Source of the DNA: Escherichia coli
GTDB lineage: Bacteria; Pseudomonadota; Gammaproteobacteria; Enterobacterales; Enterobacteriaceae
Direction: 5' to 3' (one strand)
Assembly (NCBI RefSeq): GCF_003334385.1
Contig: NZ_QOWN01000015.1
Length of the DNA stretch: 64,000 bases
Each line of letters starts with the position of its first letter. Positions within the stretch are counted from its first letter, which is position 1. Below, piece by piece: positions 1 through 49,197 of the stretch. The notes beneath the pieces were generated by a model. The model was given only the letters and a program-made list of their open reading frames with translations, ran no database searches and was not told the origin of the DNA. The position numbers were made by a program, and so were the translations under genes.

Positions 1-734
1 ACCAGTTCTGGCACTATATCAGCAATGCTGTGCAGGGGGATTTTGGCCTGTCGATGGTGTCGCGTCGTCCGGTTGCCGATGAGATTGCCAGCCGCTTTAT
101 GCCAACGCTGTGGCTGACCATAACCAGTATGGTCTGGGCGGTTATATTTGGTATGGCGGCGGGAATTATCGCCGCCGTCTGGCGTAACCGTTGGCCGGAT
201 CGATTGAGTATGACCATTGCGGTGTCGGGGATCTCGTTTCCGGCATTTGCTCTGGGGATGCTTTTAATTCAGGTATTCTCCGTTGAACTGGGCTGGCTGC
301 CTACCGTGGGAGCAGACAGTTGGCAGCACTACATTTTACCCTCCCTGACGCTCGGCGCGGCAGTGGCCGCCGTGATGGCGCGCTTTACCCGCGCGTCGTT
401 TGTCGATGTTTTAAGCGAAGATTATATGCGTACCGCGAGGGCGAAAGGGGTGAGCGAAACCTGGGTTGTCCTCAAACACGGGCTACGTAACGCGATGATC
501 CCGGTAGTGACCATGATGGGCTTACAGTTTGGCTTTTTGCTCGGTGGTTCCATCGTTGTGGAGAAAGTTTTCAACTGGCCGGGACTTGGACGCTTACTCG
601 TTGACTCCGTAGAAATGCGTGATTACCCGGTGATTCAGGCGGAAATTCTGCTTTTCTCGCTGGAATTTATTCTTATCAACTTAGTGGTGGATGTGCTTTA
701 CGCCGCCATTAACCCGGCTATCAGGTACAAGTAA
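1..734 (+). CDS. gsiC: Glutathione ABC transporter permease GsiC, 5'-truncated by window edge
   Basis: Frame of ORF 30..734 is open back to position 3 with no stop; translation is DppB/OppB-like permease; followed 2 nt later by gsiD. Confidence 0.9.
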
Positions 735-736
735 GG

Positions 737-1648
737 ATGCGACTATTTAACTGGCGACGTCAGGCGGTGTTAAACGCCATGCCACTGGTCAAACCTGACC
801 AGGTACGTACACCGTGGCATGAATTCTGGCGACGATTTCGCCGTCAGCATATGGCGATGACCGCCGCATTATTCGTTATTTTATTGATTGTGGTGGCCAT
901 TTTTGCACGCTGGATCGCTCCCTATGACGCCGAAAATTATTTTGATTATGACAATCTGAATAACGGACCTTCTTTGCAGCACTGGTTTGGCGTCGATTCA
1001 CTGGGGCGTGACATTTTCAGCCGTGTCCTGGTTGGTGCGCAAATCTCGCTGGCGGCGGGCGTGTTTGCCGTGTTTATCGGTGCGGCGATCGGGACGTTGC
1101 TGGGCTTGCTCGCTGGATATTATGAAGGCTGGTGGGATCGGCTGATCATGCGCATTTGCGATGTGCTGTTTGCCTTCCCGGGTATTTTACTGGCGATCGC
1201 TGTTGTTGCGGTGTTGGGAAGCGGCATTGCTAACGTGATTATTGCAGTCGCCATTTTTTCCATCCCCGCGTTTGCCCGCCTGGTGCGCGGCAACACGCTG
1301 GTGTTGAAACAGCAAACCTTTATTGAGTCAGCACGCAGTATTGGTGCCAGCGATATGACCGTTTTGTTGCGTCATATCCTGCCTGGGACCGTCTCTTCTA
1401 TCGTGGTGTTTTTCACCATGCGCATTGGTACCTCGATTATCTCTGCCGCCAGCCTCTCATTTCTCGGCCTCGGTGCGCAGCCGCCGACACCAGAGTGGGG
1501 AGCAATGCTCAATGAGGCTCGAGCGGATATGGTTATCGCGCCGCATGTCGCTGTTTTTCCGGCCCTGGCTATTTTTCTGACCGTACTGGCGTTCAATTTG
1601 TTGGGCGATGGTTTACGCGATGCGCTGGATCCGAAAATTAAAGGATAG
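737..1648 (+). CDS. gsiD: Glutathione ABC transporter permease GsiD
   Basis: ORF track 303 aa, DppC-like permease; length matches GsiD. Confidence 0.93.
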
Positions 1649-1825
1649 TTACGTTTGAATATTGCTTGAAAGGGTAATCACCTCACAGGAAATTATTGCC
1701 CTAAGCAAGTGTTGTAACTTTCTGCTGATTTTGTAGAATCGGGTAATTTGGTTAAAAAGCCGCAGCAAGGGACAATTTTTGCAGCGGCACAGCGTTCAGA
1801 TAGTTATTTTGTTAAATGTATTAAC

Positions 1826-4174
1826 ATGCTGAGTTTATACGAAAAGATAAAGATAAGGCTGATAATTTTATTTTTATTGGCAGCACTGTCATTTATTGGT
1901 CTTTTTTTCATCATTAACTATCAACTGGTATCGGAGCGCGCGGTAAAACGTGCCGATAGCCGCTTTGAACTTATTCAGAAAAACGTTGGCTATTTCTTTA
2001 AAGATATTGAACGTTCGGCCCTGACATTAAAGGACTCACTGTATTTATTAAAAAATACAGAGGAGATTCAACGCGCCGTGATTCTTAAAATGGAAATGAT
2101 GCCATTTTTAGACTCGGTGGGACTGGTACTTGATGATAATAAATATTATCTTTTTTCGCGGAGGGCGAATGATAAAATCGTTGTTTATCATCAGGAACAA
2201 GTAAATGGACCGCTTGTCGACGAGTCAGGGCGGGTTATTTTTGCCGATTTTAACCCATCGAAACGACCGTGGTCGGTGGCTTCAGATGACTCTAACAACA
2301 GCTGGAATCCGGCATACAATTGCTTTGATCGTCCGGGTAAAAAATGTATCTCTTTTACGCTACACATCAACGGCAAAGATCACGATTTGTTAGCGGTGGA
2401 TAAAATTCATGTCGATTTAAACTGGCGATATCTGAACGAGTATCTTGATCAAATCAGCGCTAATGATGAAGTTCTATTTTTGAAACAAGGCCATGAGATC
2501 ATTGCCAAGAATCAACTCGCTCGTGAAAAACTGATTATTTATAATAGCGAAGGTAATTATAATATTATTGATTCTGTCGATACTGAATATATCGAAAAAA
2601 CATCAGCGGTGCCAAACAACGCATTATTCGAAATCTATTTTTATTATCCTGGCGGTAATTTATTGAACGCATCAGATAAACTTTTTTATCTGCCGTTTGC
2701 GTTCATTATTATCGTATTGCTGGTGGTTTATTTAATGACCACTCGTGTGTTCCGTCGGCAATTTTCTGAAATGACAGAGCTGGTTAATACGCTGGCGTTT
2801 TTGCCTGACTCAACGGATCAAATCGAGGCTCTGAAAATTCGTGAAGGCGATGCGAAAGAGATTATCAGCATCAAAAATTCGATCGCGGAAATGAAAGATG
2901 CCGAAATTGAACGGTCAAATAAATTGCTCTCACTGATCTCTTACGATCAGGAAAGTGGTTTTATTAAAAATATGGCGATTATTGAGTCTAACAATAATCA
3001 GTATCTGGCTGTGGGGATCATCAAACTGTGTGGTCTGGAAGCCGTGGAAGCGGTGTTTGGTGTTGATGAGCGCAATAAAATCGTCAGGAAATTGTCTCAG
3101 CGAATTGCCGAGAAATATGCGCAATGCTGCGATATCGTGACATTCAATGCCGATCTCTATTTACTTCTGTGTCGGGAAAATGTACAGACATTTACCCGTA
3201 AAATAGCGATGGTAAACGATTTTGACAGCAGCTTTGGCTACCGCAATCTGCGCATCCATAAGTCTGCCATTTGTGAACCTTTGCAGGGGGAAAACGCCTG
3301 GAGTTACGCAGAAAAACTGAAACTGGCGATTTCCAGTATCCGTGACCATATGTTCTCAGAGTTTATTTTCTGTGATGACGCGAAACTCAACGAAATAGAA
3401 GAGAATATCTGGATTGCGCGTAATATTCGCCATGCAATGGAAATTGGCGAACTATTCCTCGTCTATCAACCGATCGTTGATATTAACACCCGCGCCATTC
3501 TGGGCGCGGAGGCGTTGTGCCGTTGGGTGTCTGCGGAGCGGGGGATCATTTCACCGCTGAAGTTCATTACCATTGCTGAAGATATCGGGTTTATCAATGA
3601 GCTGGGTTATCAGATTATTAAAACGGCAATGGGTGAATTCAGACATTTTAGTCAGCGTGCGTCGCTGAAGGATGATTTCTTACTGCATATTAATGTTTCG
3701 CCCTGGCAGTTAAACGAACCACACTTTCATGAGCGTTTTACCACCATCATGAAAGAAAATGGCCTGAAGGCGAACAGCCTCTGTGTTGAGATCACTGAAA
3801 CCGTGATCGAGCGAATTAATGAACATTTTTATCTCAATATTGAACAACTGCGTAAACAAGGGGTACGGATATCGATTGATGACTTTGGCACCGGTTTGTC
3901 AAACCTGAAACGTTTTTATGAAATTAATCCAGACAGCATAAAGGTGGACTCGCAATTCACCGGCGATATTTTCGGTACTGCGGGAAAAATTGTGCGCATT
4001 ATTTTCGACCTGGCACGCTATAACCGGATCCCGGTGATTGCGGAAGGCGTAGAGAGCGAAGACGTTGCGCGCGAATTAATCAAATTAGGATGTGTTCAGG
4101 CTCAGGGGTATCTGTACCAGAAACCCATGCCATTCTCCGCCTGGGATAAAAGTGGAAAATTAGTAAAAGAGTAG
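1826..4174 (+). CDS. pdeI: c-di-GMP phosphodiesterase PdeI (YliE), EAL domain with N-terminal membrane/periplasmic region
   Basis: ORF 1748..4174 trimmed to ATG at 1826 (782 aa); C-terminal EAL domain with intact EAL motif (GAEALCRW). Confidence 0.88.
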
Positions 4175-4181
4175 TTTACGT

Positions 4182-5510
4182 ATGTCCAGAATCAATAAGT
4201 TCGTACTTACAGTCAGTCTGCTGATTTTTATCATGATTTCAGCAGTTGCCTGCGGGATCTACACTCAAATGGTAAAGGAACGGGTGTATAGCCTGAAACA
4301 GTCCGTTATTGATACTGCTTTTGCGGTGGCAAATATTGCTGAATATCGGCGTAGCGTGGCAATTGATCTTATCAACACGCTAAATCCCACGGAGGAACAG
4401 CTGTTGGTTGGTTTGCGCACAGCTTACGCCGACTCGGTTTCCCCCTCTTATTTGTACGATGTCGGTCCTTATCTGATTTCCAGTGACGAATGTATTCAGG
4501 TAAAGGAGTTCGAGAAAAATTATTGTGCAGATATTATGCAGGTTGTGAAGTATCGACATGTCAAAAATACAGGGTTTATCTCTTTTGACGGTAAAACCTT
4601 CGTCTATTACCTCTATCCGGTAACTCACAATCGTAGTCTGATATTTTTGCTTGGTCTGGAGCGTTTTTCTTTACTGTCAAAATCGCTGGCGATGGACAGC
4701 GAGAACCTGATGTTCTCTCTATTTAAGAACGGTAAACCGGTGACCGGTGATGAATATAATGCTAAAAACGCCATCTTCACCGTTTCGGAAGCGATGGAGC
4801 ACTTCGCCTATTTGCCGACCGGATTGTATGTATTTGCGTATAAAAAAGATGTTTATTTGCGGGTTTGTACATTGATTATTTTCTTTGCCGCATTGGTGGC
4901 AGTGATATCGGGTGCCAGTTGCCTCTATCTGGTACGCAGAGTGATTAATCGTGGTATTGTGGAGAAAGAAGCCATCATTAATAACCATTTTGAACGCGTA
5001 CTGGATGGCGGGCTTTTCTTTTCGGCTGCCGATGTCAAAAAACTCTACAGTATGTATAACTCGGCGTTCCTGGACGACCTGACCAAAGCAATGGGCAGAA
5101 AATCCTTTGACGAAGATTTAAAAGCGCTGCCGGAAAAAGGCGGTTATTTGTGCCTGTTTGACGTCGATAAATTCAAAAACATTAACGACACCTTCGGTCA
5201 TTTGCTGGGCGATGAAGTGTTGATGAAAGTGGTGAAAATCCTTAAATCACAGATCCCGGTAGATAAAGGTAAAGTCTACCGCTTCGGCGGTGACGAATTT
5301 GCGGTGATTTATACGGGTGGAACGCTGGAAGAGTTGCTATCGATTCTAAAAGAAATCGTTCATTTCCAGGTGGGAAGCATTAATTTAAGTACCAGTATCG
5401 GTGTAGCACATTCAAATGAATGTCCTACCGTCGAACGCTTGAAAATGCTGGCGGATGAGCGGCTGTATAAGAGTAAGAAAAACGGCAGGGCACAGATTAG
5501 CTGGCAGTAA
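4182..5510 (+). CDS. dgcI: Diguanylate cyclase DgcI (YliF), GGDEF domain
   Basis: ORF 442 aa; canonical GGDEF motif (RFGGDEF); starts 8 nt after pdeI stop. Confidence 0.92.
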
Positions 5511-5556
5511 TCATTATTCGCAGGCCGGACAAATGATTTTGCCCGGCCTGAATTAA

Positions 5557-6882
5557 TTAAACCCGGCTACCCCACAAATCGTACTCATCGGCGTGCTCGA
5601 CTTTCACACGCAGGATATCACCCGGCTTAACGTTGGTTTCACCATTGAGATAAACCGCGCCGTCGATTTCCGGTGCATCTGCCATGCTGCGACCAATCGC
5701 GCCTTCTTCGTCCACTTCGTCGATAATCACCAGAATTTCACGGCCCACTTTCTCTTGCAGGCGCTCGGCGGAAATCTGCTGCTGCAGCTGCATGAAACGG
5801 TTCCAGCGTTCTTCTTTAACTTCTTCCGGAACCTGGTCAGGCAGGGCATTGGCGTCTGCACCTTCAACCGGGCTGTATTTAAAGCAGCCAACGCGATCCA
5901 GACGCGCTTCTTTCAGGAAGTCGAGTAGCATCTGGAAATCTTCTTCTGTCTCGCCAGGGAAGCCGACAATAAAGGTTGAGCGTAGGGTCAGTTCCGGGCA
6001 GATTTCGCGCCACTGTTTGATGCGCGCCAGTTGGCGATCTACAGAACCCGGACGCTTCATCAGTTTGAGAATGCGCGGGCTGGCGTGCTGCAACGGAATG
6101 TCCAGATACGGCAGGATTTTGCCTTCTGCCATCAGTGGGATGACGTCGTCCACATGCGGATAAGGGTAAACGTAGTGCAGACGTGTCCAGATCCCCAGTT
6201 TCGATAACTGTTCGCACAGGCTGACCATGCTGGTTTTTACCGGCTCGCCGTTGTGGAAGCCAGTACGATGTTTAACATCAACGCCATAGGCGGAAGTATC
6301 CTGCGAGATCACCAGAATCTCTTTAACGCCCGCATCTACCAGACGTTTCGCTTCACTTAACACTTCGCCAATCGGACGGCTCACCAGGTCGCCGCGCATA
6401 GACGGAATAATGCAGAAGGTGCAGCGGTGATTACAGCCTTCAGAAATTTTCAGATAGGCATAATGACGCGGCGTCAGTTTCACACCTTGTTCTGGCACCA
6501 GGCTCAGGAATGGGTTGTGTTTCGGTTTTGGCACGTAGTGATGAACGTGCTCCAGAACCTGCTCATAGCTATGAGGCCCGGTGATTTCCAGCACTTTCGG
6601 GTGGACTTCGCGGATCTGATCTTCTTTTGCCCCCAGACAACCGGTCACAATAACCTTGCCGTTTTCATTCAACGCTTCACCAATGGCTTCCAGTGATTCT
6701 TGTACCGCGCTGTCAATAAAGCCGCAGGTGTTGACGATCACCATGTCCGCATCGTCATAGCTCGGTACCACGTCATAACCTTCAGTGCGGAGTTCGGTGA
6801 GAATACGCTCTGAATCAACAAGGTTTTTCGGACAGCCAAGGGAAACAAAGCCGATTTTCGGCTGGGGAGTTACTTTGCTCAT
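5557..6882 (-). CDS. rimO: Ribosomal protein S12 methylthiotransferase RimO
   Basis: ORF 441 aa; radical-SAM CxxxCxxC motif (CNHRCTFC), MiaB-like. Confidence 0.95.
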
Positions 6883-7094
6883 AGCTTAAAAAATATTCAG
6901 TTACAGGAAAGGTCAGGGCAGGGATTCTACAGAGTTCTGGATAAAATTTGTATCGCAATCTCATTCGCTGGCGGAGGCGAAGGAAATGTAAATTTTGTTA
7001 ATTCGGCGTGAAGAATTGATCCTGGACAGCATTTTGCTCAAAAAATAGCCATACTATTTAATTGCAACAAGGCAGGGAAGAGGAGGATCGAAGT

Positions 7095-7478
7095 ATGTTC
7101 GTTGACAGACAGCGAATCGATCTGCTGAACCGGTTGATCGACGCACGCGTTGACCTCGCCGCATACGTGCAACTGAGGAAGGCAAAAGGATACATGTCCG
7201 TCAGCGAAAGCAATCATCTACGAGATAACTTTTTTAAACTGAATCGCGAACTGCACGATAAATCGCTGCGGTTGAATCTTCATCTGGATCAGGAAGAGTG
7301 GAGTGCTCTTCATCATGCTGAAGAAGCATTAGCGACAGCCGCAGTATGTTTGATGAGTGGGCACCATGATTGCCCGACTGTTATTACCGTCAACGCCGAT
7401 AAGCTTGAAAATTGTCTGATGAGCTTAACGCTGAGTATCCAGAGCCTGCAGAAGCACGCCATGCTTGAGAAGGCCTGA
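7095..7478 (+). CDS. bssR: Biofilm regulator BssR
   Basis: ORF 7062..7478 trimmed to ATG 7095 (127 aa); AGGAGG RBS at 7081-7086. Confidence 0.9.
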   Translation: MFVDRQRIDLLNRLIDARVDLAAYVQLRKAKGYMSVSESNHLRDNFFKLNRELHDKSLRLNLHLDQEEWSALHHAEEALATAAVCLMSGHHDCPTVITVNADKLENCLMSLTLSIQSLQKHAMLEKA

Positions 7479-7485
7479 AAACTAA

Positions 7486-7525
7486 GGGGGAGAAAGCGTC
7501 TCCCCCTTCATGTTTAAGTTTTTGT
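7486..7525 (+). terminator. Rho-independent terminator downstream of bssR
   Basis: Perfect 8-bp stem GGGGGAGA/TCTCCCCC with 5-nt loop followed by T-rich tract. Confidence 0.8.
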
Positions 7526-7588
7526 AAAAATGAATTTGTTATCTCCTCCACTGACTACGCTTTAAGCCAGAGTCAATCCGGAGGCGTT

Positions 7589-8704
7589 ATGCATCGACAA
7601 TCCTTTTTCCTTGTGCCCCTTATTTGTCTTTCTTCCGCTCTCTGGGCGGCTCCTGCAACGGTAAATGTCGAAGTACTGCAAGACAAACTCGACCATCCCT
7701 GGGCACTGGCCTTTTTACCCGATAATCACGGTATGTTAATCACTCTGCGCGGCGGCGAGTTGCGTCACTGGCAAGCAGGAAAAGGATTATCTGCGCCGCT
7801 TTCCGGAGTTCCGGACGTTTGGGCGCACGGGCAGGGCGGCCTGCTGGACGTGGTTTTAGCGCCTGATTTTGCTCAGTCTCGCCGCATCTGGTTAAGTTAT
7901 TCCGAAGTTGGCGATGATGGCAAAGCCGGAACTGCTGTGGGTTATGGCCGCTTAAGTGATGATCTCTCAAAAGTGACCGACTTCCGCACCGTCTTTCGCC
8001 AGATGCCAAAACTGTCTACCGGCAACCATTTTGGCGGGCGGCTGGTATTCGACGGTAAAGGTTATCTTTTTATTGCTCTGGGCGAAAACAATCAGCGCCC
8101 GACGGCGCAGGATCTGGATAAATTACAGGGCAAACTGGTGCGTCTGACCGACCAGGGCGAAATCCCGGATGATAATCCTTTTATAAAGGAATCCGGTGCG
8201 CGCGCCGAGATCTGGTCTTATGGCATTCGTAATCCGCAAGGAATGGCGATGAATCCGTGGAGTAATGCACTGTGGCTGAATGAACATGGCCCGCGCGGTG
8301 GTGATGAAATTAATATCCCGCAAAAAGGCAAAAACTACGGCTGGCCGCTGGCAACCTGGGGAATCAACTATTCAGGCTTTAAGATACCGGAAGCGAAAGG
8401 GGAGATCGTCGCCGGGACCGAGCAACCTGTTTTTTACTGGAAAGATTCGCCCGCTGTGAGCGGCATGGCCTTCTATAACAGCGATAAATTCCCCCAGTGG
8501 CAGCAAAAATTATTTATTGGCGCGCTGAAAGATAAAGATGTCATTGTGATGAGCGTCAACGGCGACAAAGTGACAGAAGATGGCCGTATTTTAACGGACA
8601 GAGGGCAGCGAATTCGTGATGTTCGCACTGGACCCGACGGTTATTTATACGTTCTCACCGACGAGTCCAGTGGGGAATTACTTAAAGTTAGCCCACGCAA
8701 TTAG
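7589..8704 (+). CDS. yliI: Soluble aldose sugar dehydrogenase YliI (PQQ-dependent beta-propeller)
   Basis: ORF 371 aa with N-terminal signal peptide; length matches YliI. Confidence 0.9.
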
Positions 8705-9327
8705 CTAACGGGAATCATCACCACTTTGCGCACTGCGGGGCGTTCAGTGAGTTGCTGATACCAGCGTTGCAGATTTGGACGCGGTGTCCAGGTCAGGCCA
8801 ACGTTAAACAAATTGTAGATGAACGGTGCGATAGCGATATCGCCCACACCAAACTCGTCGCCAGAGAACCATTTTACTTTTGCCAGTTCCGCATCGAGCA
8901 GGGCAAACAGGGCGTCGCACTCTTTGCAACTGGCATCAATGGCGGCCTGATCGCGCTCTTCCGGTGGTGTTCTGACTAATCCCATCAGGATCCCGCGATG
9001 AGCATTACTGAGCGTCTGGTTTGCCCAGTCCATCCATTTTTCCGCTTCCGCACGACGTGCCGGTGAGTCGATCCACAGGCGTTTTTGCCCGTACTGTGCC
9101 GCCAGATAGCGGACAATGGCGTTTGATTCCCAAAGAATGAGATCACTTTCGTCGTCACGCAACAACGGCACCAGCCCGTTAGGGTTCATCGCCAGAAAAT
9201 CAGCATCGTGATTTATCCCAAACTCACGGCCCGCGAGAATTTGCTCATAAGGTAGTTCCAGTTCTTCGAGCGTCAGCAATACTTTTTTTACGTTAGTTGA
9301 ATTATTCCGACCCCACAGCGTAATCAT
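8701..9327 (-). CDS. gstB: Glutathione S-transferase GstB
   Basis: ORF 8701..9333 trimmed to ATG (208 aa); GST fold; stop overlaps yliI stop. Confidence 0.9.
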
Positions 9328-9573
9328 ACTCACCCCTTTTCCGACAGGCAGCCACAGGCTGAACAGGACTCCGATGGTGAAGTAAAGTTAACTTTTAAGC
9401 AACAGCTGGCAAAAAAATGACACCAGAAGCAGCGAAGCGGCAGGATATTGCATAAACTTTAAAAACTTTACCAACTTACGGTTTCTTTAAGTTTGTGTGT
9501 GCGTTATTAATCACCAAACTTATCATACGGCGATATAACGTATTTTTTTTGAATGGATACTCGGGTGGCATTT

Positions 9574-10776
9574 ATGACGCAATACTCCTCTCTCCTTCGT
9601 GGTCTTGCAGCGGGTTCTGCATTTTTATTCCTTTTTGCCCCAACGGCATTCGCGGCGGAACAAACCGTTGAAGCGCCGAGCGTGGATGCGCGTGCATGGA
9701 TTTTAATGGATTACGCCAGCGGTAAAGTGCTGGCAGAAGGCAATGCGGATGAGAAACTGGATCCCGCGAGCCTGACTAAAATCATGACCAGCTATGTGGT
9801 TGGGCAGGCGCTTAAGGCCGATAAGATTAAACTCACCGATATGGTGACGGTCGGTAAAGATGCCTGGGCGACGGGAAATCCGGCACTGCGTGGTTCATCG
9901 GTAATGTTCCTCAAACCGGGCGATCAGGTTTCGGTGGCAGACTTGAACAAAGGTGTGATTATCCAGTCCGGTAATGACGCCTGTATTGCGCTGGCTGATT
10001 ACGTTGCCGGGAGCCAGGAGTCATTTATTGGTCTGATGAATGGTTATGCCAAAAAACTGGGTCTGACCAACACTACCTTCCAGACGGTGCACGGCCTGGA
10101 TGCGCCGGGGCAGTTCAGCACCGCGCGCGATATGGCATTGCTGGGTAAAGCATTGATCCACGATGTGCCGGAAGAGTACGCCATTCATAAAGAGAAAGAG
10201 TTCACCTTCAACAAAATTCGTCAGCCTAACCGTAACCGTCTGCTGTGGAGCAGCAATCTGAATGTTGATGGCATGAAGACAGGAACCACGGCAGGCGCGG
10301 GATATAATCTGGTTGCTTCGGCTACCCAGGGCGATATGCGTTTAATCTCCGTAGTGTTGGGGGCGAAAACCGACCGTATCCGTTTTAATGAGTCTGAGAA
10401 ATTATTGACCTGGGGTTTCCGCTTCTTTGAAACCGTGACGCCAATTAAACCTGATGCCACCTTTGTGACTCAGCGCGTCTGGTTTGGTGATAAGAGCGAA
10501 GTGAATCTCGGGGCAGGTGAAGCGGGCTCAGTGACCATACCGCGTGGGCAGCTGAAAAACCTGAAAGCGAGTTATACGTTAACGGAACCGCAGCTTACCG
10601 CACCGCTGAAAAAAGGTCAGGTTGTCGGGACCATTGATTTCCAGCTTAACGGTAAATCCATTGAGCAGCGTCCGCTGATCGTGATGGAAAATGTGGAAGA
10701 GGGCGGATTCTTTGGTCGGGTGTGGGATTTCGTGATGATGAAATTCCATCAGTGGTTCGGCAGCTGGTTCTCTTAA
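9574..10776 (+). CDS. dacC: D-alanyl-D-alanine carboxypeptidase DacC (PBP6)
   Basis: ORF 9553..10776 trimmed to ATG 9574 (400 aa); signal peptide, SxxK motif (SLTK). Confidence 0.92.
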
Positions 10777-10822
10777 TCTTCTGATAACCGGATGGCGCGA
10801 AACGTCATCCGGTTATACGTCA

Positions 10823-11581
10823 TTAATACATCAACTTAATGCGCTGCGTCTGCGCGTACTTCACATACTCATCTTCCGGGCAACAATCGCTCACCACAAT
10901 ATCAAAGCGTTTCAGGTCACCCATGCGCGCCGGACGCACCTTGCCAAATTTACTGTGGTCGACAACCAGCACATGCTTTTGCGCCATCGACATGGCCCAG
11001 TGTTTTACCGGCAACTCTTCAAGATTAAAACAGGTAGCGCCTTTACTGACATGCACGCCCGCCGCAGAATAAAAAGCGATATCCGGGCAAAAATTATTCA
11101 GCGTTTGCTGAAAATCGATGGGTTTGAAAATGGCGTTGCTGGCGTGAAATTCACCACCGCAAAGAAACGCGCGGCAATGGGGTTTCTCTTTCAGCGCCAG
11201 AAAGGTATTTAGCGAATAACAAACGGCGGTAAAAGGGATTTCATTATCAATCGCTTCAATAATCCACGGCGTGGTGGTGCCACAGTCAAAAAAGAGGGTC
11301 TGATCGGGTTCTACCAGCGTCGCAGCCAGTTTTGCCGCCCGGCGTTTTTCTTCCACCAGGCGGGATTTTTGATCGCTTAACAGGTAATGGCTGGCACTGC
11401 GCGGTTCCAGAACAATATAGCCGCCGAGCAAAACGACGGGCGCACTGTGGTTGTTCAGATCGCGACGAATCGTCATCTCCGAAACCCCAAGCAGGGCGGC
11501 GGCGTCTTTAAGATGTAACTTATCGCTGCGTTTTAATTCTTGCAGCAGCTGCCCGATACGCTCTTCGCGACGTGTTTCCAT
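10823..11581 (-). CDS. deoR: Deoxyribose operon repressor DeoR
   Basis: ORF 252 aa; DeoR-family N-terminal HTH. Confidence 0.93.
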   Translation of the reverse strand: METRREERIGQLLQELKRSDKLHLKDAAALLGVSEMTIRRDLNNHSAPVVLLGGYIVLEPRSASHYLLSDQKSRLVEEKRRAAKLAATLVEPDQTLFFDCGTTTPWIIEAIDNEIPFTAVCYSLNTFLALKEKPHCRAFLCGGEFHASNAIFKPIDFQQTLNNFCPDIAFYSAAGVHVSKGATCFNLEELPVKHWAMSMAQKHVLVVDHSKFGKVRPARMGDLKRFDIVVSDCCPEDEYVKYAQTQRIKLMY

Positions 11582-42804: not shown

Positions 42805-43704
42805 TTACGCAGAGAAAAAGGCGATGAGGATCGGCACTAACAGGCTAAGAATAAAACCGTGAACAATTGCCGCCGGGACCATATCCAGCCCGCCAGTACG
42901 TTGAAGAACGGGCAGGGTGAAATCCATTGATGTGGCACCGCATAAGCCCAGTGCAGTAGAGCGGCTGCGGCGAATCAGCCCAGGGATCAACATAATAGCA
43001 ATCAGTTCACGGGCCAGATCATTAAAAAACGCCGCGCTCCCGATTACCGGACCAAAAGATTCGGTCAATAAAATACCGGAAAGAGAATACCAGCCGAAAC
43101 CGGAGGCCATTGCCAGCGCGGTATTGATGGGGAGATCAAGAATAAAGGCGTTAATTAAACCACCAATTAATGAACTGACAACCACCACCACGGCGACAAT
43201 CATTCCCCGGCGATTAAGGACAATCTGCTTTAAGGTCATGCCATTATTGCGCAACTGAATACCAACGAGGAAAAGTAGCAAAATTAACGTGTATTCACTG
43301 GCTTCGGTCGCGTGTTGTAAGAAAGCCAGTCCACTTAGACCAATGGCAAAACCAATCACTACTACGCCGCACAGTTTTAGCGACTCCAGCGCCATCGCAA
43401 TACGCGACGGGAGTTTTTCTTGCTGATGGTGGTTGCGCCACGGCAGGCCTCGCTCCAGCCACATCAGGGCGGCAATATTACACAGTAAAATAACGGTAAT
43501 ACTGACGGCAGAATAATGCAGAATCGCCAACAGGTTACTGGCGAGGTTATCGAGAAACGCCAGACTGATACCCATAAAAAAGAGAATAAGGTAAACCATC
43601 CAGCTTAATAGCTGATTAATAACTTTTAACGCAGCTTGTTGGCGGAGCGGAATGAGGTAACCCACAATCAGGGGAACCAGAATGATTAACAGCCCAGAAA
43701 ACAT
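42805..43704 (-). CDS. lysO: L-lysine exporter LysO (YbjE)
   Basis: ORF 42805..43752 trimmed to ATG (299 aa); multi-TM. Confidence 0.88.
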   Translation of the reverse strand: MFSGLLIILVPLIVGYLIPLRQQAALKVINQLLSWMVYLILFFMGISLAFLDNLASNLLAILHYSAVSITVILLCNIAALMWLERGLPWRNHHQQEKLPSRIAMALESLKLCGVVVIGFAIGLSGLAFLQHATEASEYTLILLLFLVGIQLRNNGMTLKQIVLNRRGMIVAVVVVVSSLIGGLINAFILDLPINTALAMASGFGWYSLSGILLTESFGPVIGSAAFFNDLARELIAIMLIPGLIRRSRSTALGLCGATSMDFTLPVLQRTGGLDMVPAAIVHGFILSLLVPILIAFFSA

Positions 43705-43916
43705 GAAAACCCAGTCCTTGCAAAGATGAAGTCGAAATGCGCGATGACACACTACTGAAAGCGGAAGGACGAGTAAAGTTGCAATTAAAAGGAAATGTTA
43801 TGCATAAGGAGCAGTAGAGTATTCGTTTTCATTTAAAGATATTCTTGCGCTTTAATTACAAACTGCACCGATGTTGGTGGCGTCAAAATCGCCGAGGCGT
43901 TCCCTGAAGGCCGGGG

Positions 43917-43938
43917 CAGCCCACATGGATGTGGGCTG
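43917..43938. repeat. Perfect palindrome (10-bp arms) in GC-rich lysO-aqpZ intergenic region
   Basis: CAGCCCACAT-GG-ATGTGGGCTG. Confidence 0.9.
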
Positions 43939-44043
43939 AGGGCGCGTTTTACAGGGATGTTACCTCGCGCCCGACCCGGTAGCCGTAAGGGATAAGTCGA
44001 GGGCACCGCGCAGCGGCGATTTTGTTCGCCAGAGCCCGGGGGT

Positions 44044-44075
44044 GCAGGGGGCGGCGGCGATTGGCCGCCCCCTGC
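44044..44075. repeat. Perfect GC-rich palindrome (12-bp arms, 8-nt spacer) in lysO-aqpZ intergenic region
   Basis: GCAGGGGGCGGC-GGCGATTG-GCCGCCCCCTGC. Confidence 0.9.
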
Positions 44076-44158
44076 GCGCTCCTTGCGCCAGTGGCAATAT
44101 GTTGCTTAGCTCATGAAAGGAGCGCAACAAGATGATGAATCAACATATAACAACATCT

Positions 44159-44188
44159 TAAAAAAAGGCCTGACATTACGCCAGGCCT
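44159..44188 (-). terminator. Rho-independent terminator of aqpZ
   Basis: Stem AGGCCTG/CAGGCCT with 9-nt loop; on minus strand followed by TTTTTT. Confidence 0.8.
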
Positions 44189-44198
44189 TCTGCGTTAA

Positions 44199-44894
44199 TT
44201 AATCACGCTTTTCCAGCAGGGGCCGGTAAATCAGACCACCGATAATGCCGCCGACAATTGGCACCACCCAGAAGAACCACAGTTGTTCTAATGCCCAGCC
44301 GCCCTGGAAGATAGCAACCGCGGTGCTGCGCGCCGGGTTAACAGAAGTGTTAGTCACCGGAATACTAATTAAGTGAATCAGGGTTAAGGCCAGACCAATA
44401 GCGATCGGCGCAAAACCTGCCGGCGCGAATTTGTCGGTTGCGCCGTGGATCACCAACAGGAAACCTGCACTCAATACCAGTTCAACTACCAGCGCGGAAA
44501 GCATGGAATAACCGCCTGGTGAATGCTCGCCATAACCGTTAGAAGCAAAACCGCTGGCTGCCGCGTCAAAACCCGTTTTACCACTGGCAATTAAATACAG
44601 CAGCGCCGCTGCAACAATACCGCCGACAACCTGGGCAATTACGTAGCCAACGACTTCTTTTGCCGGAAAACGTCCGCCAGCCCATAAACCAATAGTGACC
44701 GCCGGGTTAAAATGACCACCAGAAATATGACCAACAGCAAAGGCCATCGTCAGAACGGTCAGACCGAACGCCAACGCCACGCCGGCAAAACCAATGCCTA
44801 ATTCCGGGAAGCCTGCGGCCAGTACAGCACTACCACAGCCACCAAAAACAAGCCAGAAAGTACCAAAACATTCAGCTGCTAATTTTCTGAACAT
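44199..44894 (-). CDS. aqpZ: Aquaporin Z
   Basis: ORF 44199..44900 trimmed to ATG (231 aa); MIP-family NPA motifs (HFNPAV, SVNPAR). Confidence 0.95.
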
Positions 44895-45319
44895 ATCCAC
44901 CTCAATTAAAAATTGACCCTGTGAAAAATATGGTCGTTTTATAGGGTCGTCGTAAAAAAGTGACGACGGAAATAATGCGCGGCTATTTTAAAAACGAAGG
45001 CGAGTCATTCACCAGATAAATAAATCCAGTAAATTTGATTTAGGGCAACAGCGGGTTGCCCCATATAGTCATTTGTCTGATTGACAGTGTAGTGCACGCA
45101 AAAGATTTAATCCTTTAGGCGTAATAAAAAATAATTTATCATGCTAATTATTTGATTTTGTTGTTTTTGCAGACTTATCAGCAAGAGGGAGTATAACGCG
45201 ATTATTCGCTCATTTTTCAGACATTTGCCATGCTTAAATGTGATGTCATCACGTATTAGCAAGGCCTTTCCCGTTATACTGCCAGCGTAAAGGATAAGTC
45301 ACATATTTCTGGAGGGGAT

Positions 45320-46978
45320 ATGATTCTTGAGCGCGTTGAAATTGTGGGTTTTCGCGGTATCAACCGTTTGTCGTTGATGCTGGAACAAAACAACGTCCTG
45401 ATTGGGGAGAACGCGTGGGGTAAATCCAGCTTGCTGGACGCCTTAACTCTGCTGCTATCGCCAGAATCAGATCTCTACCATTTTGAGCGCGACGATTTCT
45501 GGTTCCCGCCGGGAGATATCAACGGGCGAGAACATCATCTGCATATTATTTTGACCTTCCGCGAATCGCTGCCAGGCCGACATCGGGTTCGCCGTTATCG
45601 GCCGCTGGAAGCGTGCTGGACGCCATGCACCGATGGCTATCACCGTATTTTTTATCGTCTGGAAGGGGAGAGTGCGGAAGACGGCAGCGTGATGACACTG
45701 CGCAGTTTTCTCGATAAAGACGGACATCCGATTGATGTCGAGGATATTAACGATCAGGCACGCCATCTGGTGCGTTTAATGCCGGTGCTGCGCTTGCGTG
45801 ATGCCCGTTTTATGCGCCGTATTCGTAACGGCACGGTGCCAAATGTCCCTAATGTGGAAGTCACCGCGCGCCAGCTCGATTTCCTCGCCCGTGAGTTATC
45901 CTCACATCCGCAAAATCTCTCTGATGGGCAGATTCGTCAGGGACTTTCCGCAATGGTACAGCTGCTTGAGCATTATTTCTCTGAGCAGGGGGCCGGACAG
46001 GCGCGATATCGTTTAATGCGGCGGCGAGCCAGCAATGAGCAACGAAGCTGGCGCTATCTGGATATCATCAACCGGATGATTGACCGACCTGGTGGGCGCT
46101 CGTATCGGGTTATTTTGCTCGGCCTATTTGCTACTTTGTTGCAGGCAAAAGGCACATTGCGACTGGATAAAGACGCCCGTCCATTGTTGCTGATCGAAGA
46201 TCCAGAAACCCGTTTACACCCCATTATGCTTTCAGTTGCCTGGCATCTGTTGAATCTTCTGCCATTGCAGCGCATTGCCACCACCAACTCGGGTGAGTTG
46301 CTTTCGTTAACGCCGGTAGAGCATGTTTGCCGACTGGTACGTGAGTCCTCGCGCGTTGCCGCCTGGCGTCTGGGGCCGAGTGGCTTGAGTACCGAAGATA
46401 GCCGACGCATATCCTTTCACATTCGTTTTAACCGTCCGTCATCGCTGTTTGCACGCTGCTGGTTGCTGGTGGAAGGGGAAACGGAAACCTGGGTTATCAA
46501 TGAACTGGCGCGTCAGTGCGGACATCATTTTGATGCCGAAGGGATCAAGGTCATTGAGTTTGCCCAGTCCGGGCTAAAGCCACTGGTTAAATTTGCCCGC
46601 CGAATGGGGATTGAATGGCATGTACTGGTCGATGGCGATGAAGCAGGGAAGAAATATGCCGCTACGGTACGCAGCCTGTTGAATAACGATCGGGAAGCCG
46701 AACGAGAACATTTAACGGCGTTACCGGCGCTGGATATGGAACATTTTATGTATCGCCAGGGATTTTCCGATGTGTTCCACCGCATGGCGCAAATCCCGGA
46801 AAATGTACCGATGAATCTACGCAAAATTATCTCGAAAGCGATCCATCGCTCTTCCAAACCCGATCTTGCCATTGAAGTGGCAATGGAGGCAGGACGTCGT
46901 GGTGTGGACTCCGTACCGACGCTGCTGAAAAAAATGTTCTCACGCGTGCTGTGGCTGGCGCGCGGTCGCGCGGATTAA
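45320..46978 (+). CDS. ybjD: OLD-family ATPase-Toprim protein YbjD (predicted ATP-dependent nuclease, function unknown)
   Basis: ORF 552 aa; N-terminal Walker A GENAWGKSS (nt 45404-45430), Walker B-like LLLIEDPE, C-terminal Toprim-like motifs (LLVEGETE, VLVDGDEAG). Confidence 0.9.
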   Translation: MILERVEIVGFRGINRLSLMLEQNNVLIGENAWGKSSLLDALTLLLSPESDLYHFERDDFWFPPGDINGREHHLHIILTFRESLPGRHRVRRYRPLEACWTPCTDGYHRIFYRLEGESAEDGSVMTLRSFLDKDGHPIDVEDINDQARHLVRLMPVLRLRDARFMRRIRNGTVPNVPNVEVTARQLDFLARELSSHPQNLSDGQIRQGLSAMVQLLEHYFSEQGAGQARYRLMRRRASNEQRSWRYLDIINRMIDRPGGRSYRVILLGLFATLLQAKGTLRLDKDARPLLLIEDPETRLHPIMLSVAWHLLNLLPLQRIATTNSGELLSLTPVEHVCRLVRESSRVAAWRLGPSGLSTEDSRRISFHIRFNRPSSLFARCWLLVEGETETWVINELARQCGHHFDAEGIKVIEFAQSGLKPLVKFARRMGIEWHVLVDGDEAGKKYAATVRSLLNNDREAEREHLTALPALDMEHFMYRQGFSDVFHRMAQIPENVPMNLRKIISKAIHRSSKPDLAIEVAMEAGRRGVDSVPTLLKKMFSRVLWLARGRAD

Positions 46979-47967
46979 CCGCGAAACATCGTGGCCATTT
47001 GTGGCTGAATAGCGTCGAGCATCTCATAGCGCCGACGGTATTCAGCCCGTTTTTTACTGGCGATTTCGGCAATCTCTTTTCGTGCTATCTGTGCTGGAAG
47101 GCGGTAATGGCGTTCAGCATCACATACGCCGCCAACCGATTCCCAGAAAGCGTTGTAATCAGCGTGGATCTTGCCTTCTTTATCGCGATAACGCAGGCTG
47201 CGGTAAATATGCGTTTCATTGCTGACGGCAATAATCTGCTCTACCTGCAAACGTTGGGCAAACAGACAGGCCGCTTCCATCACGAGGCGTTTGGGAAATA
47301 GCCCGTGGCAGGCTTTCGTCGCATTCTGGATTTCCTGATGTGGAATTTCCCATTTTGCGCCTTGCAGTCCGCCAATAAACATCGTTCTTTTCCCCTGATA
47401 TTCACACAGGGTAAACGTGATCTCTGCCAGAGGAATACCTTCGCTGTTGCGGAACAGGATTGTGCTGTCACCTTCTTTATCCATTGAGATCATCATGGTC
47501 AGCTCAAGCGTGAACTGCTCGCCGTTTTTGCCTTCCAGCTTCGCCAGTTGCAGCCCGGGGGTATTCAAATATAAGCTGAATTCTTCCGCCGACATACATT
47601 CGCGGAGTAACGCATAATGGTAACGTAACGCCTCCAGCAATTGCTTACGGCTAAGATTCGCCGCAAGGTAAGGGCGATGCAGACGCACAGGCAGTCGCGG
47701 CTGGCGCGTTAACAATACATTGAGATTAGGCCAGTGGGAAAGTTCGTTCATCCACTCAACGCTTAAACGCGGCATAATCAACGAGCGCAGCAAAAATTTC
47801 TGGCGAAAACTACGGCGATGCCAGAATTTACCCGGCCGACACTGTCCACGTGCCAGACTAAGAAAAAGTGACAGGCTGCTGAGAGATTCAGATGGCGTAA
47901 AGGTCCGTTCAGTTAGCTGCGACATATTCATGAAATCAATGGTTATACATGGCGTCGATTTCACCAT
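46975..47967 (-). CDS. ybjX: VirK/DUF535-family protein YbjX
   Basis: ORF 330 aa; length and position match ybjX; stop overlaps ybjD stop. Confidence 0.88.
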   Translation of the reverse strand: MVKSTPCITIDFMNMSQLTERTFTPSESLSSLSLFLSLARGQCRPGKFWHRRSFRQKFLLRSLIMPRLSVEWMNELSHWPNLNVLLTRQPRLPVRLHRPYLAANLSRKQLLEALRYHYALLRECMSAEEFSLYLNTPGLQLAKLEGKNGEQFTLELTMMISMDKEGDSTILFRNSEGIPLAEITFTLCEYQGKRTMFIGGLQGAKWEIPHQEIQNATKACHGLFPKRLVMEAACLFAQRLQVEQIIAVSNETHIYRSLRYRDKEGKIHADYNAFWESVGGVCDAERHYRLPAQIARKEIAEIASKKRAEYRRRYEMLDAIQPQMATMFRG

Positions 47968-48081
47968 TGCGTATCTTAACCAAACATCAATAGTGTGATT
48001 ACTAACGTAAATTTTAGGGTTTTGTTGATATTTCGTTGAAGTTAATGACCCGGATTGGCATATGGAGTATTCAGAAAATTT

Positions 48082-49197
48082 ATGAAAAAGCGGAAAACCG
48101 TGAAGAAGCGTTACGTTATTGCGCTGGTGATAGTCATCGCCGGACTGATTACGTTATGGAGAATTCTTAACGCACCCGTGCCGACTTATCAGACGCTGAT
48201 TGTGCGCCCCGGTGATTTACAGCAAAGCGTGCTGGCGACCGGAAAGCTGGACGCGCTGCGTAAGGTTGATGTGGGCGCGCAGGTCAGCGGTCAGTTGAAA
48301 ACTCTGTCGGTGGCGATTGGCGATAAAGTAAAAAAAGACCAGCTTTTAGGGGTTATTGATCCTGAACAGGCTGAAAACCAGATTAAGGAGGTCGAAGCAA
48401 CGCTGATGGAGCTACGTGCGCAGCGGCAGCAGGCGGAAGCGGAGCTGAAACTGGCGCGGGTGACGTATTCCCGTCAGCAACGTCTGGCACAAACGAAGGC
48501 TGTTTCACAGCAGGATCTCGACACCGCCGCGACGGAGATGGCTGTGAAACAGGCGCAAATTGGCACCATTGACGCGCAAATCAAGCGCAATCAGGCTTCT
48601 CTCGATACGGCTAAAACCAATCTCGATTACACTCGCATCGTTGCCCCGATGGCCGGGGAAGTCACGCAAATCACCACTCTGCAAGGCCAGACGGTGATTG
48701 CCGCACAACAAGCACCGAACATTCTGACGCTGGCAGATATGAGCACCATGCTGGTAAAAGCGCAGGTTTCTGAAGCGGATGTAATCCACCTGAAGCCGGG
48801 GCAAAAAGCCTGGTTTACGGTGCTTGGCGATCCACTGACGCGCTACGAGGGGCAAATCAAGGATGTACTACCGACGCCGGAAAAGGTTAACGACGCTATT
48901 TTCTATTACGCCCGTTTTGAAGTCCCCAACCCCAATGGTTTGCTGCGGCTGGATATGACTGCGCAAGTGCATATTCAGCTCACCGATGTGAAAAATGTGC
49001 TGACGATCCCTCTGTCGGCGTTAGGCGATCCGGTTGGCGATAATCGTTATAAAGTCAAATTGTTGCGTAATGGTGAAACACGCGAGCGTGAAGTGACGAT
49101 TGGCGCACGTAACGATACCGATGTTGAGATTGTCAAAGGGCTTGAAGCGGGCGATGAAGTGGTGATTGGTGAGGCCAAACCAGGAGCTGCACAATGA
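48082..49197 (+). CDS. macA: Macrolide efflux membrane fusion protein MacA
   Basis: ORF 48055..49197 trimmed to ATG 48082 (371 aa). Confidence 0.92.

Follow-up and report, generated by a model that had tools for sequence, protein, structure and literature searches.

The core gene ybjD of Escherichia coli: a stand-alone ATPase-Toprim protein of the OLD family and its relationship to Gabija GajA

We provide a computational analysis of ybjD, a gene located at positions 45320-46978 of a stretch of 64,000 nucleotides of Escherichia coli DNA (contig NZ_QOWN01000015.1 of assembly GCF_003334385.1; this whole stretch is referred to as the window). Our data suggest that ybjD very probably encodes a true OLD-family enzyme, in which an ABC ATPase with a helical insertion is combined with a Toprim domain and a C-terminal helical bundle, and that it is inherited vertically as a core gene. 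The stand-alone status of the gene and the membership of its product in the OLD family are virtually certain. As for origin and role, a conceivable reading, though clearly short of probable, is that YbjD is not a defence protein but a domesticated descendant or a sister of a Gabija-type GajA lineage, i.e. the product of a helicase-free core gene of Gamma- and Betaproteobacteria, which would act as a nuclease in housekeeping DNA or RNA metabolism comparable to the archaeal protein Cran1, the published anti-phage effect being an artefact of ATPase overexpression. The original prediction for this locus, made from the letters of the window, had described a single gene with the architecture of OLD nucleases, four sequence motifs, no adjacent helicase or other effector and a core-genome setting. 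This description was borne out except for the wording of one motif and for a statement on the roles of Class 1 proteins, both of which are taken up below.

The open reading frame listing of the window contains ybjD, as predicted, as one frame of 552 amino acids; its ATG start is the earliest start codon past the in-frame stop. The 4 kb surrounding ybjD are 100% identical to several complete E. coli chromosomes, in which they are annotated as aqpZ, ybjD, ybjX and macA, showing that the window is E. coli chromosome. Within the protein, the Pfam family DUF2813 covers residues 1-375 (E 3.5e-160) and OLD-like_TOPRIM residues 376-440 (E 7.8e-16), while AAA_15, AAA_29, AAA_21, AAA_23 and SMC_N match residues 1-50. 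Among the PADLOC defence profiles the GajA profile PDLC00094 scores best (E 6.8e-80), and the Old profile is matched with an E-value of 1.9e-24; NCBIfam holds no equivalog model for YbjD. An AlphaFold monomer model built from 61 relatives (predicted local distance difference test, pLDDT, 88.5; predicted template modelling score, pTM, 0.87) retrieves GajA (5e-20), Ts OLD (2e-17) and Eco8 OLD (8.5e-15) as top matches in Foldseek, the solved GajA of B. cereus being the best structural match, and after the OLD proteins the heads of SMC, Rad50, RecF and RecN are nearest to the ATPase fold. The profile search and the comparison of a predicted structure with solved OLD structures had both been proposed as checks in the original prediction; they support the OLD-type ATPase-Toprim architecture, and a placement of YbjD in a different ABC-ATPase family without a Toprim domain was not borne out. 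The match to the OLD family is far beyond chance.

This assignment extends to the level of individual residues. A profile of the YbjD family aligns with Ts OLD (E 6.7e-21) with the catalytic residues mapping across, and K35, E293, H300 and the metal-binding residues of YbjD fall on sites that mutagenesis has established in Ts OLD, Bp OLD and P2 Old; in Ts OLD, a catalytic role was demonstrated for E276 and H283 (PMC7049728). All four motifs named in the original prediction are present at their predicted places, i.e. GENAWGKSS, LLLIEDPE (residues 289-296; 46184-46207), LLVEGETE (residues 382-389; 46463-46486) and VLVDGDEAG (residues 435-443; 46622-46648). The second of these had been described as a Walker B-like hhhhDE element; the element is indeed present with E293 opposite Ts E276, but it reads hhhhED-PE. 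The sequence LLLIEDPETRLHP, which comprises Walker B and D-loop, aligns with VIIEEPEMYLHP of Ts OLD and with YLIEEPEISLH of GajA. At the H-loop, N323 stands where the canonical His residue sits, opposite Ts H310. The exchange of His to Asn at this position was already reported as frequent in Class 1 OLDs (PMC7049728), and we considered and rejected the Asn-containing H-loop and the Glu-Asp Walker B as novelties of YbjD, as Schiltz et al. 2020 report such variants among Class 1 OLDs.

In the Toprim core, E385 and E389 are aligned opposite Ts E377 and D381, and D438 and D440 opposite Ts D431 and D433. The D472-x-E474 pattern further downstream matches S478/E480 in Ts OLD, T506/E508 in Bp OLD and D541/E543 in P2 Old, so that D472 and E474 are putative equivalents of the metal B ligands, judged by pattern and position. 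The AlphaFold model predicts five helices between ATPase strands in residues 177-277 and four C-terminal helices in residues 473-551, and 164 YbjD residues can be aligned with the C-terminal region of the Class 2 enzyme Bp OLD at 2.4 Å. YbjD displays the features by which OLD-family enzymes are recognised, namely a P-loop ATPase, an OLD-type Walker B and H-loop, a predicted helical insertion, the Toprim metal ligands and the overall fold.

The conservation pattern points to the nuclease as the part of YbjD under the strongest constraint. In a family alignment of 61 members, in which the relatives span 28-53% identity within Gamma- and Betaproteobacteria (among them Vibrio, Motilimonas and the betaproteobacterium Chitinilyticum), the residues E385, E387, E389, D440, D472, E474 and K513 are invariant and D438 is conserved in 60 of the 61 sequences. 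The ATPase positions present a mixed picture: G29 and E30 are found in all members and G34 in 60, the position of K35 is occupied by Lys in 55, Arg in five and Ser in one, and E293, E296 and H300 are conserved in 56, 57 and 60 members, respectively. Position 294 varies more widely (D in 35, E in 18, N in four, A in two, T and R in one each), as does the H-loop position (N in 37, H in ten, Q in eight, Y in five and A in one). The non-synonymous substitution rate (dN) of the Toprim core is 0.016-0.030 versus 0.067-0.073 for the ATPase region, and it is the lowest in the protein in four of five species comparisons, Buttiauxella being the exception. As the nuclease residues are invariant, selection maintains an activity which the published overexpression assay did not need, and this selection on the nuclease argues for the published phenotype not being the native function. 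Judged by this pattern of sequence conservation, the native function must use the nuclease.

The family also includes YbjD-like giants of 780-1870 amino acids (P0030, P0042, P0043, P0045, P0050, P0055, P0059, P0060, P0070, P0072, P0076 and P0086), in which both ends and every catalytic motif are YbjD-like. Each contains very large low-complexity insertions at two places, the ATPase insertion region and the stretch that separates the Toprim core from the C-terminal helices. They were considered as fusions revealing a partner of YbjD and dismissed as such, no extra domain being recognisable by eye.

The closest defence-system relative of YbjD is Gabija GajA of the PADLOC subfamily PDLC00094, a Class 2 OLD acting with the helicase GajB. 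A GajA encoded on a viral-classified contig (L092) shares 31% identity with YbjD over residues 1-548 (E 4e-81), contains DUF2813 as well and has the signatures FARCWLLVEGETE, VEFAQ-GLKPL, GIEWH-L-DGD and SKP in common with YbjD. A second family member, P0144 on contig L097, is directly followed by GajB. In a neighbour-joining tree of 76 taxa with P2 Old as outgroup and 100 bootstrap replicates, the YbjD clade is monophyletic in 92 replicates, and the GajB-linked pair groups together in 98 and falls outside the YbjD clade in 92. In 73 of the replicates the pair is nested among other solo members, and the GajB-linked proteins may be either basal to the solo members or nested among them. While the GajB-linked GajAs keep the H-loop His and a Glu-Glu Walker B and reside in defence islands, YbjD has Asn and Glu-Asp at these positions and is encoded in a conserved housekeeping block without GajB. 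We also considered whether the members with an H-loop His are of the Gabija type in general and rejected this, since P0058, P0100 and P0133 are also solo (one being ambiguous at a contig end). The gene called 'ybjD' in Salmonella genomic island 1 encodes a GajA, has uvrD/GajB as its partner and has nothing but the name in common with the gene analysed here.

Gene order and domain structure show that ybjD is neither a Gabija nor a PARIS component. In Gabija, GajA is followed by the UvrD-like GajB, whereas ybjD is followed by the convergent ybjX; in PARIS, AriA and AriB are separate, whereas the domains of YbjD are fused, the AriA profile matching residues 1-51 only. As it has no partner gene next to it, be it a UvrD-like helicase, a reverse transcriptase or another system component, ybjD is Class 1 by context. 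The closest defence-system relatives are nevertheless of the GajA lineage and not P2 Old, and 'Class 1' describes the context and not the descent of YbjD. The alignment of the C-terminal bundle with the Class 2 Bp OLD and the lack of a counterpart in Ts OLD are consistent with this. Ts OLD of Thermus scotoductus (PDB 6P74), the structural archetype of Class 1, is 21% identical to YbjD over the aligned residues and is without the C-terminal helical bundle that carries the invariant K513 in YbjD. P2 Old is a single-gene OLD whose ATPase and Toprim motifs are the same as those of YbjD; however, its 28% identity is restricted to YbjD residues 252-440, and P2 Old is phage-borne and kills recBC cells. 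Another comparison is offered by Cran1 of the Sulfolobales, a lineage-wide OLD in fixed synteny with apparently no role in defence (PMC12796447). When overexpressed, it produces a phenotype that requires the ATPase but not the nuclease, although the nuclease residues are conserved, which is the same pattern as found for YbjD. Cran1 is essential, archaeal and a proven nickase, whereas YbjD is dispensable and bacterial, and the likeness is drawn without a sequence comparison of the two proteins.

The core-genome setting suggested for ybjD is supported by its distribution. A full-length ybjD at ≥96% identity is present in 5425 of 5426 complete E. coli genomes (BLAST coverage). We furthermore scanned one genome per species and used the best 80 loci, all of which belong to Enterobacterales, for synteny counts. 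The identity of YbjD declines with phylogenetic distance from 99% to 66%, i.e. 97-99% in Escherichia, ~90% in Citrobacter and Salmonella, ~85% in Klebsiella and Enterobacter, 80% in Buttiauxella, 68% in Pectobacterium and 66% in Serratia. In the 80 loci ybjD lies constantly within the order hcp-lysO-(aqpZ)-ybjD-(ybjX)-macAB; aqpZ is present in 62 and ybjX in 57 of them, with ybjD being retained. The dN of ybjD (0.065 versus Salmonella and 0.057 versus Citrobacter) is level with those of lysO, macA and macB. Of 11 more distant DUF2813 relatives examined, ten are again single genes with unrelated housekeeping genes around them, although one of these is ambiguous because it lies at a contig end; the 11th is the GajB-linked P0144. 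An accessory, patchy or mobile distribution, as expected of a defence gene, was not found; ybjD is a vertically inherited core gene of Enterobacterales, unlike typical defence genes. The neighbouring ybjX behaves differently, showing a dN of 0.34-0.37 versus Salmonella and Citrobacter and of up to 0.50 overall, thus evolving 5-6 times faster than ybjD and the other neighbours, and it is missing in Klebsiella, Raoultella, Superficieibacter and others.

Searches of phage, viral and plasmid collections agree with a chromosomal gene. No YbjD-type gene was found in true phage records among the 50,697 searched. What this phage collection does yield is P2 Old, 28% identical along a third of the length, a human-faecal phage contig with 26%, and a 2-kb fragment, probably of E. 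coli DNA. A YbjD-type gene is found on two of 2.9 million viral contigs, the one (L091) being E. coli host DNA and the other (L092) the defence island described above. The PHROG family phrog_4747 of unknown function matches YbjD residues 233-538 (E 4.6e-116); we rejected it as a sign of a phage-borne YbjD, as neither the 50,697 phage genomes nor the 2.9 million viral contigs support this. The likely source of the family is predicted prophage regions in which host or defence-island genes were included. Near-identical matches in PLSDB are chromosome-sized records or fragments: CP088669.1, CP061270.1, NZ_OL790696.1, NZ_CP141089.1 and others have a size of 0.7-5.4 Mb or are small ybjD-ybjX fragments, and such records seem to be chromosomes, or parts of them, that were wrongly labelled as plasmids.

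The identity, family and class of ybjD and its first phenotypes have already been published. Schiltz et al. 2019 used E. coli YbjD (b0876) as query of their OLD survey, placed E. coli with the single-gene OLDs of Class 1 and reported poor purification for most Class 1 homologues (PMC6755086). A micropublication by Atahualpa et al. from May 2026 is devoted to ybjD and proposes the name oldB (PMC13261556). The YbjD/OldB of K-12 is the same gene as the one studied here, as the published ATPase and Toprim domains, the Class 1 context and the aqpZ and ybjX flanks all match. In that study ybjD was found to be expressed, and the sensitivity of the Keio knockout was unchanged for all 68 of 68 BASEL phages (PMC13261556). 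Upon arabinose induction YbjD lowered the plaquing of Bas18 and Bas20 and made the plaques of Bas64-68 smaller, with the inducer at a non-toxic level; deletion of the ATPase domain abolished this weak anti-phage effect, whereas the K35A variant retained it and was more toxic than the wild type, and recBC cells survived YbjD, unlike P2 Old (PMC13261556). With this study the plaquing and mutant experiments proposed in the original prediction have largely been done, apart from the in vitro biochemistry. Other papers naming ybjD contain only strain-construction notes or gene lists and were set aside. The present analysis adds the population-wide and phylogenetic distribution, the conservation of single residues, the comparison of structures and the link to the GajA lineage, none of which occurs in the parts of the text of both papers accessible to us. 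That Class 1 OLD proteins have no established cellular role, as the original prediction put it, is outdated, since P2 Old was shown to cleave tRNA-Thr(UGU) in a manner requiring ATP hydrolysis (PMC12445682) and Vibrio cholerae OLD (Vc OLD) to be a defence nickase (PMC12392090); for YbjD itself the cellular role is still open.

While motifs, fold, conservation pattern and lack of a partner gene are shown, the mechanism that follows is a proposal. YbjD would assemble via its helical insertion, and nucleotide binding at K35 of the P-loop might act as a switch that restrains the enzyme, because the K35A variant is more toxic than the wild type. GajA is inhibited by ATP according to the discussion section of PMC12796447. 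ATP hydrolysis by YbjD would probably be slow, because of the Asn residue in the H-loop and the Asp residue at the second Walker B position. The released Toprim site would then cut nucleic acid by a two-metal mechanism, with E385, D438 and D440 coordinating metal A and E389, D472 and E474 coordinating metal B, and with K513 in addition; two-metal Toprim cleavage is known from Ts OLD, Bp OLD and Cran1. An ATP-gated nuclease has, in our estimate, an even chance of being correct. As substrate, DNA, which would be nicked as by GajA, Vc OLD and Cran1, seems somewhat more probable than tRNA or other RNA. The native role would need the nuclease in low-level surveillance or genome maintenance, and the overexpression effect would be a side effect of the ATPase domain, because neither the Toprim domain nor K35 is needed for it.

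Several points weigh against the proposed mechanism. Deletion of the Toprim domain or mutation of its three acidic residues resulted in no measurable change (PMC13261556), and since the domain is thereby dispensable in the assays, YbjD would be a nuclease without a demonstrated phenotype. PMC13261556 reports neither nuclease nor ATPase biochemistry, and for the ybjD knockout no phenotype is known beyond the 68 phages without effect. The dN/dS ratios are rough because the synonymous rate (dS) is saturated. The oligomeric state suggested for YbjD and the role ascribed to K513 were derived from a monomer model, and the proposed ATP-off state draws on one mutant and on the analogy to GajA. Furthermore, ATP has no effect on in vitro cleavage by Ts OLD, Vc OLD and Cran1, and P2 Old is even activated by ATP hydrolysis (PMC12445682).

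Two readings of the native role of YbjD are about equally likely, each being conceivable but clearly short of probable. YbjD might be a dedicated single-gene anti-phage protein, 'OldB', that senses infection and stops the phage or kills the cell like Vc OLD and P2 Old. The effects of induced YbjD on Bas18, Bas20 and Bas64-68 at a non-toxic inducer level (PMC13261556) are in line with this, as are the facts that every characterised bacterial OLD is a defence protein, that the top PADLOC matches are GajA profiles and that the nearest in-system relatives lie in islands together with GajB, HmaC and a Type IIG restriction enzyme. However, the knockout is as sensitive as its parent to the 68 BASEL phages though the gene is expressed, the overexpression effect is independent of the Toprim domain and the Walker A lysine, and ybjD is housekeeping-like in its near-universal presence (5425/5426 genomes), fixed synteny, neighbour-like rate and absence from true phage genomes, with neighbours that are not defence genes. 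Alternatively, YbjD might be an OLD domesticated for genome maintenance, replication or cell cycle, a bacterial counterpart of Cran1 with no real role in defence. The core distribution, vertical inheritance and strong purifying selection would be explained by such a role, the ATPase fold is near the heads of SMC, Rad50, RecF and RecN, the protein is basic with a computed isoelectric point (pI) of 9.35, and Cran1 sets the precedent of an ATPase-dependent overexpression phenotype as in YbjD (PMC12796447). This is opposed by ybjD not being essential, as a Keio knockout exists and an insertion sequence IS1 disrupts it in strain NCM3722, by the literature searched recording no growth or DNA-damage phenotype, by the lack of a LexA box near ybjD, and by no repair or replication gene ever being a conserved neighbour in the lineages examined.

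Less likely, and in our view improbable, is YbjD being an RNA- or tRNA-targeting Toprim nuclease acting on cellular or phage RNA like P2 Old, which cuts in the anticodon stem, or AriB of PARIS. tRNases do occur in the family, with P2 Old acting on tRNA-Thr(UGU) (PMC12445682) and AriB on tRNA, and OLD proteins have an active site mirroring the one in RNase M5 (PMC6755086); yet the identity to P2 Old of ~28% extends over one third of the length only, recBC cells are not killed by YbjD, unlike by P2 Old, and the closest relatives are of the GajA type, GajA being a DNA nickase. One distant relative adjoins a beta-CASP RNase-type gene and another cysS, but these adjacencies carry no weight because the neighbouring genes are not conserved. 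The idea of ybjD as a decaying or functionless remnant, e.g. of a Gabija system that lost GajB, could appeal to the missing knockout phenotype, to the occasional insertions disrupting ybjD and to the relaxed ATPase positions, with K35 replaced by Arg or Ser in six of 61 members and the H-loop occupied by Asn, His, Gln or Tyr. A relic would not be expected to be full length in 5425 of 5426 E. coli genomes, to have a dN as low as its housekeeping neighbours with the Toprim core most constrained in most comparisons, to keep its nuclease residues unchanged in gamma- and betaproteobacterial relatives that are 28-53% identical, or to conserve its ribosome-binding site and -10-like element while being transcribed. 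These conservation data nearly exclude a functionless relic, which we regard as highly improbable.

Table 1. Features of ybjD in the window and of the GajA-containing island on contig L092; residue numbers refer to YbjD.
Feature	Position	Strand	Remarks
Candidate sigma-70 -10 hexamer TATACT	45275..45280	+	Inside CGTTATACTG at 45272-45281, ~40 nt 5' of ATG
Shine-Dalgarno GGAGG	45311..45315	+	4 nt before ATG; conserved in 9/9 genera aligned
ybjD (proposed oldB), coding sequence	45320..46978	+	Open reading frame; Pfam; RefSeq 'ybjD: ATP-dependent endonuclease'
Walker A/P-loop GENAWGKSS	45404..45430	+	Residues 29-37; K35 aligns with Ts OLD K34
Helical insertion in ATPase fold (predicted)	45848..46150	+	Residues ~177-277; counterpart of OLD dimerisation domain
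Walker B and D-loop LLLIEDPETRLHP	46184..46222	+	Residues 289-301; E293, D294, E296, H300
H-loop position TTNSG	46280..46294	+	Residues 321-325; aligns with STHSP of Ts OLD and GajA
Toprim core	46445..46735	+	Residues 376-472; metal A E385, D438, D440; metal B E389
D472-M-E474, proposed second half of metal site B	46733..46741	+	Pattern [S/T/D]xE
C-terminal helical bundle	46736..46975	+	Residues 473-552; invariant K513-P514 at 46856-46861
ybjD/ybjX tail-to-tail overlap, 4 nt	46975..46978	.	Open reading frame ends; without intergenic terminator
HmaC	L092 135-3497		IMGVR_UViG_3300021604_000070, viral-classified contig; compact defence island 135-11066
GajA	L092 3503-5215		
GajB	L092 5212-7131		4-nt overlap with GajA
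Type IIG restriction-modification enzyme	L092 7890-11066	-	

The neighbourhood of ybjD (Table 1) consists of aqpZ, which lies divergently upstream (44199-44894, minus strand), and of ybjX, a VirK-family gene that lies convergently downstream (46975-47931, minus strand) and shares 4 nt with the end of ybjD, as the original prediction had it. The PADLOC defence profiles give zero matches in the neighbours aqpZ, ybjX, lysO and macA, in agreement with the RefSeq annotation, and a hidden partner among the neighbours was rejected, as there are no defence-profile matches and conservation alongside ybjD is seen neither for aqpZ nor for ybjX. The -4 spacing between ybjD and ybjX is kept in 45 of the 57 loci having ybjX, and an RNA-seq study lists ybjD-ybjX as a convergent excludon (PMC12288877). 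On the upstream side, the TATACT block and GGAGG are the sole conserved blocks in an alignment of nine genera, the rest of the intergenic region being unconserved. The TATACT block is aligned in seven of the nine genera, with shifted copies in Buttiauxella and Siccibacter, and the block CGTTATACTG containing it occurs once in the window. It may serve as promoter of ybjD; a generic promoter scan gave no call upstream of ybjD, having missed TATACT because no -35 element is present. From its sequence context ybjD appears to be its own, monocistronic transcription unit.

Control by LexA within the SOS response was considered and rejected: CTGT-N8-ACAG with one mismatch yields 20 sites in the window, which is chance level, none of which lies near ybjD. 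An Rfam scan of 43500-48500 revealed no structured RNA or riboswitch at ybjD, with one sub-threshold match far upstream. This match falls into the lysO-aqpZ spacer (43850-44055), which contains a small dispersed repeat with terminal inverted repeats of 16 nt at 43884-43899 and 44009-44024; it resembles the Rfam family TwoAYGGAY at 30.6 bits, i.e. below the gathering score of 43, and is present in a median of three and a maximum of eight copies per E. coli genome.

Further side observations concern insertions and the contigs used above. In NCM3722, which derives from K-12, ybjD is interrupted by an IS1A element (NZ_CP011495.1 2168852-2171287) and annotated as two DUF2813 fragments, and strain TW01221 (NZ_CP074725.1) carries another IS1 within the aqpZ-macA region; such natural IS1 knockouts indicate that the gene is dispensable in the laboratory. 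The viral-classified contig L091 (IMGVR_UViG_2534681697_000018, 1-6766) contains aqpZ-ybjD-ybjX-macA at one end and unrelated sequence past the lysO-aqpZ spacer, the repeat of which is inverted, which suggests either that an element was inserted beside aqpZ in this strain or that the prophage boundary was drawn wrongly. On contig L097 a DUF1828/DUF1829 gene (363-1133) precedes and overlaps the Gabija pair of P0144 and matches the PADLOC candidate PDC-M24B (E 6.5e-104).

As a summary, ybjD presents a paradox: a protein resembling an immune effector is encoded by a core gene with invariant nuclease residues, while its deletion has no known phenotype and its sole reported activity is nuclease-free. 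Resolving this paradox would show either an OLD nuclease that was recruited to a cellular task, as Cran1 was, or a defence gene persisting as a core gene, and it would also assign a function to one of the remaining uncharacterised genes of E. coli K-12.

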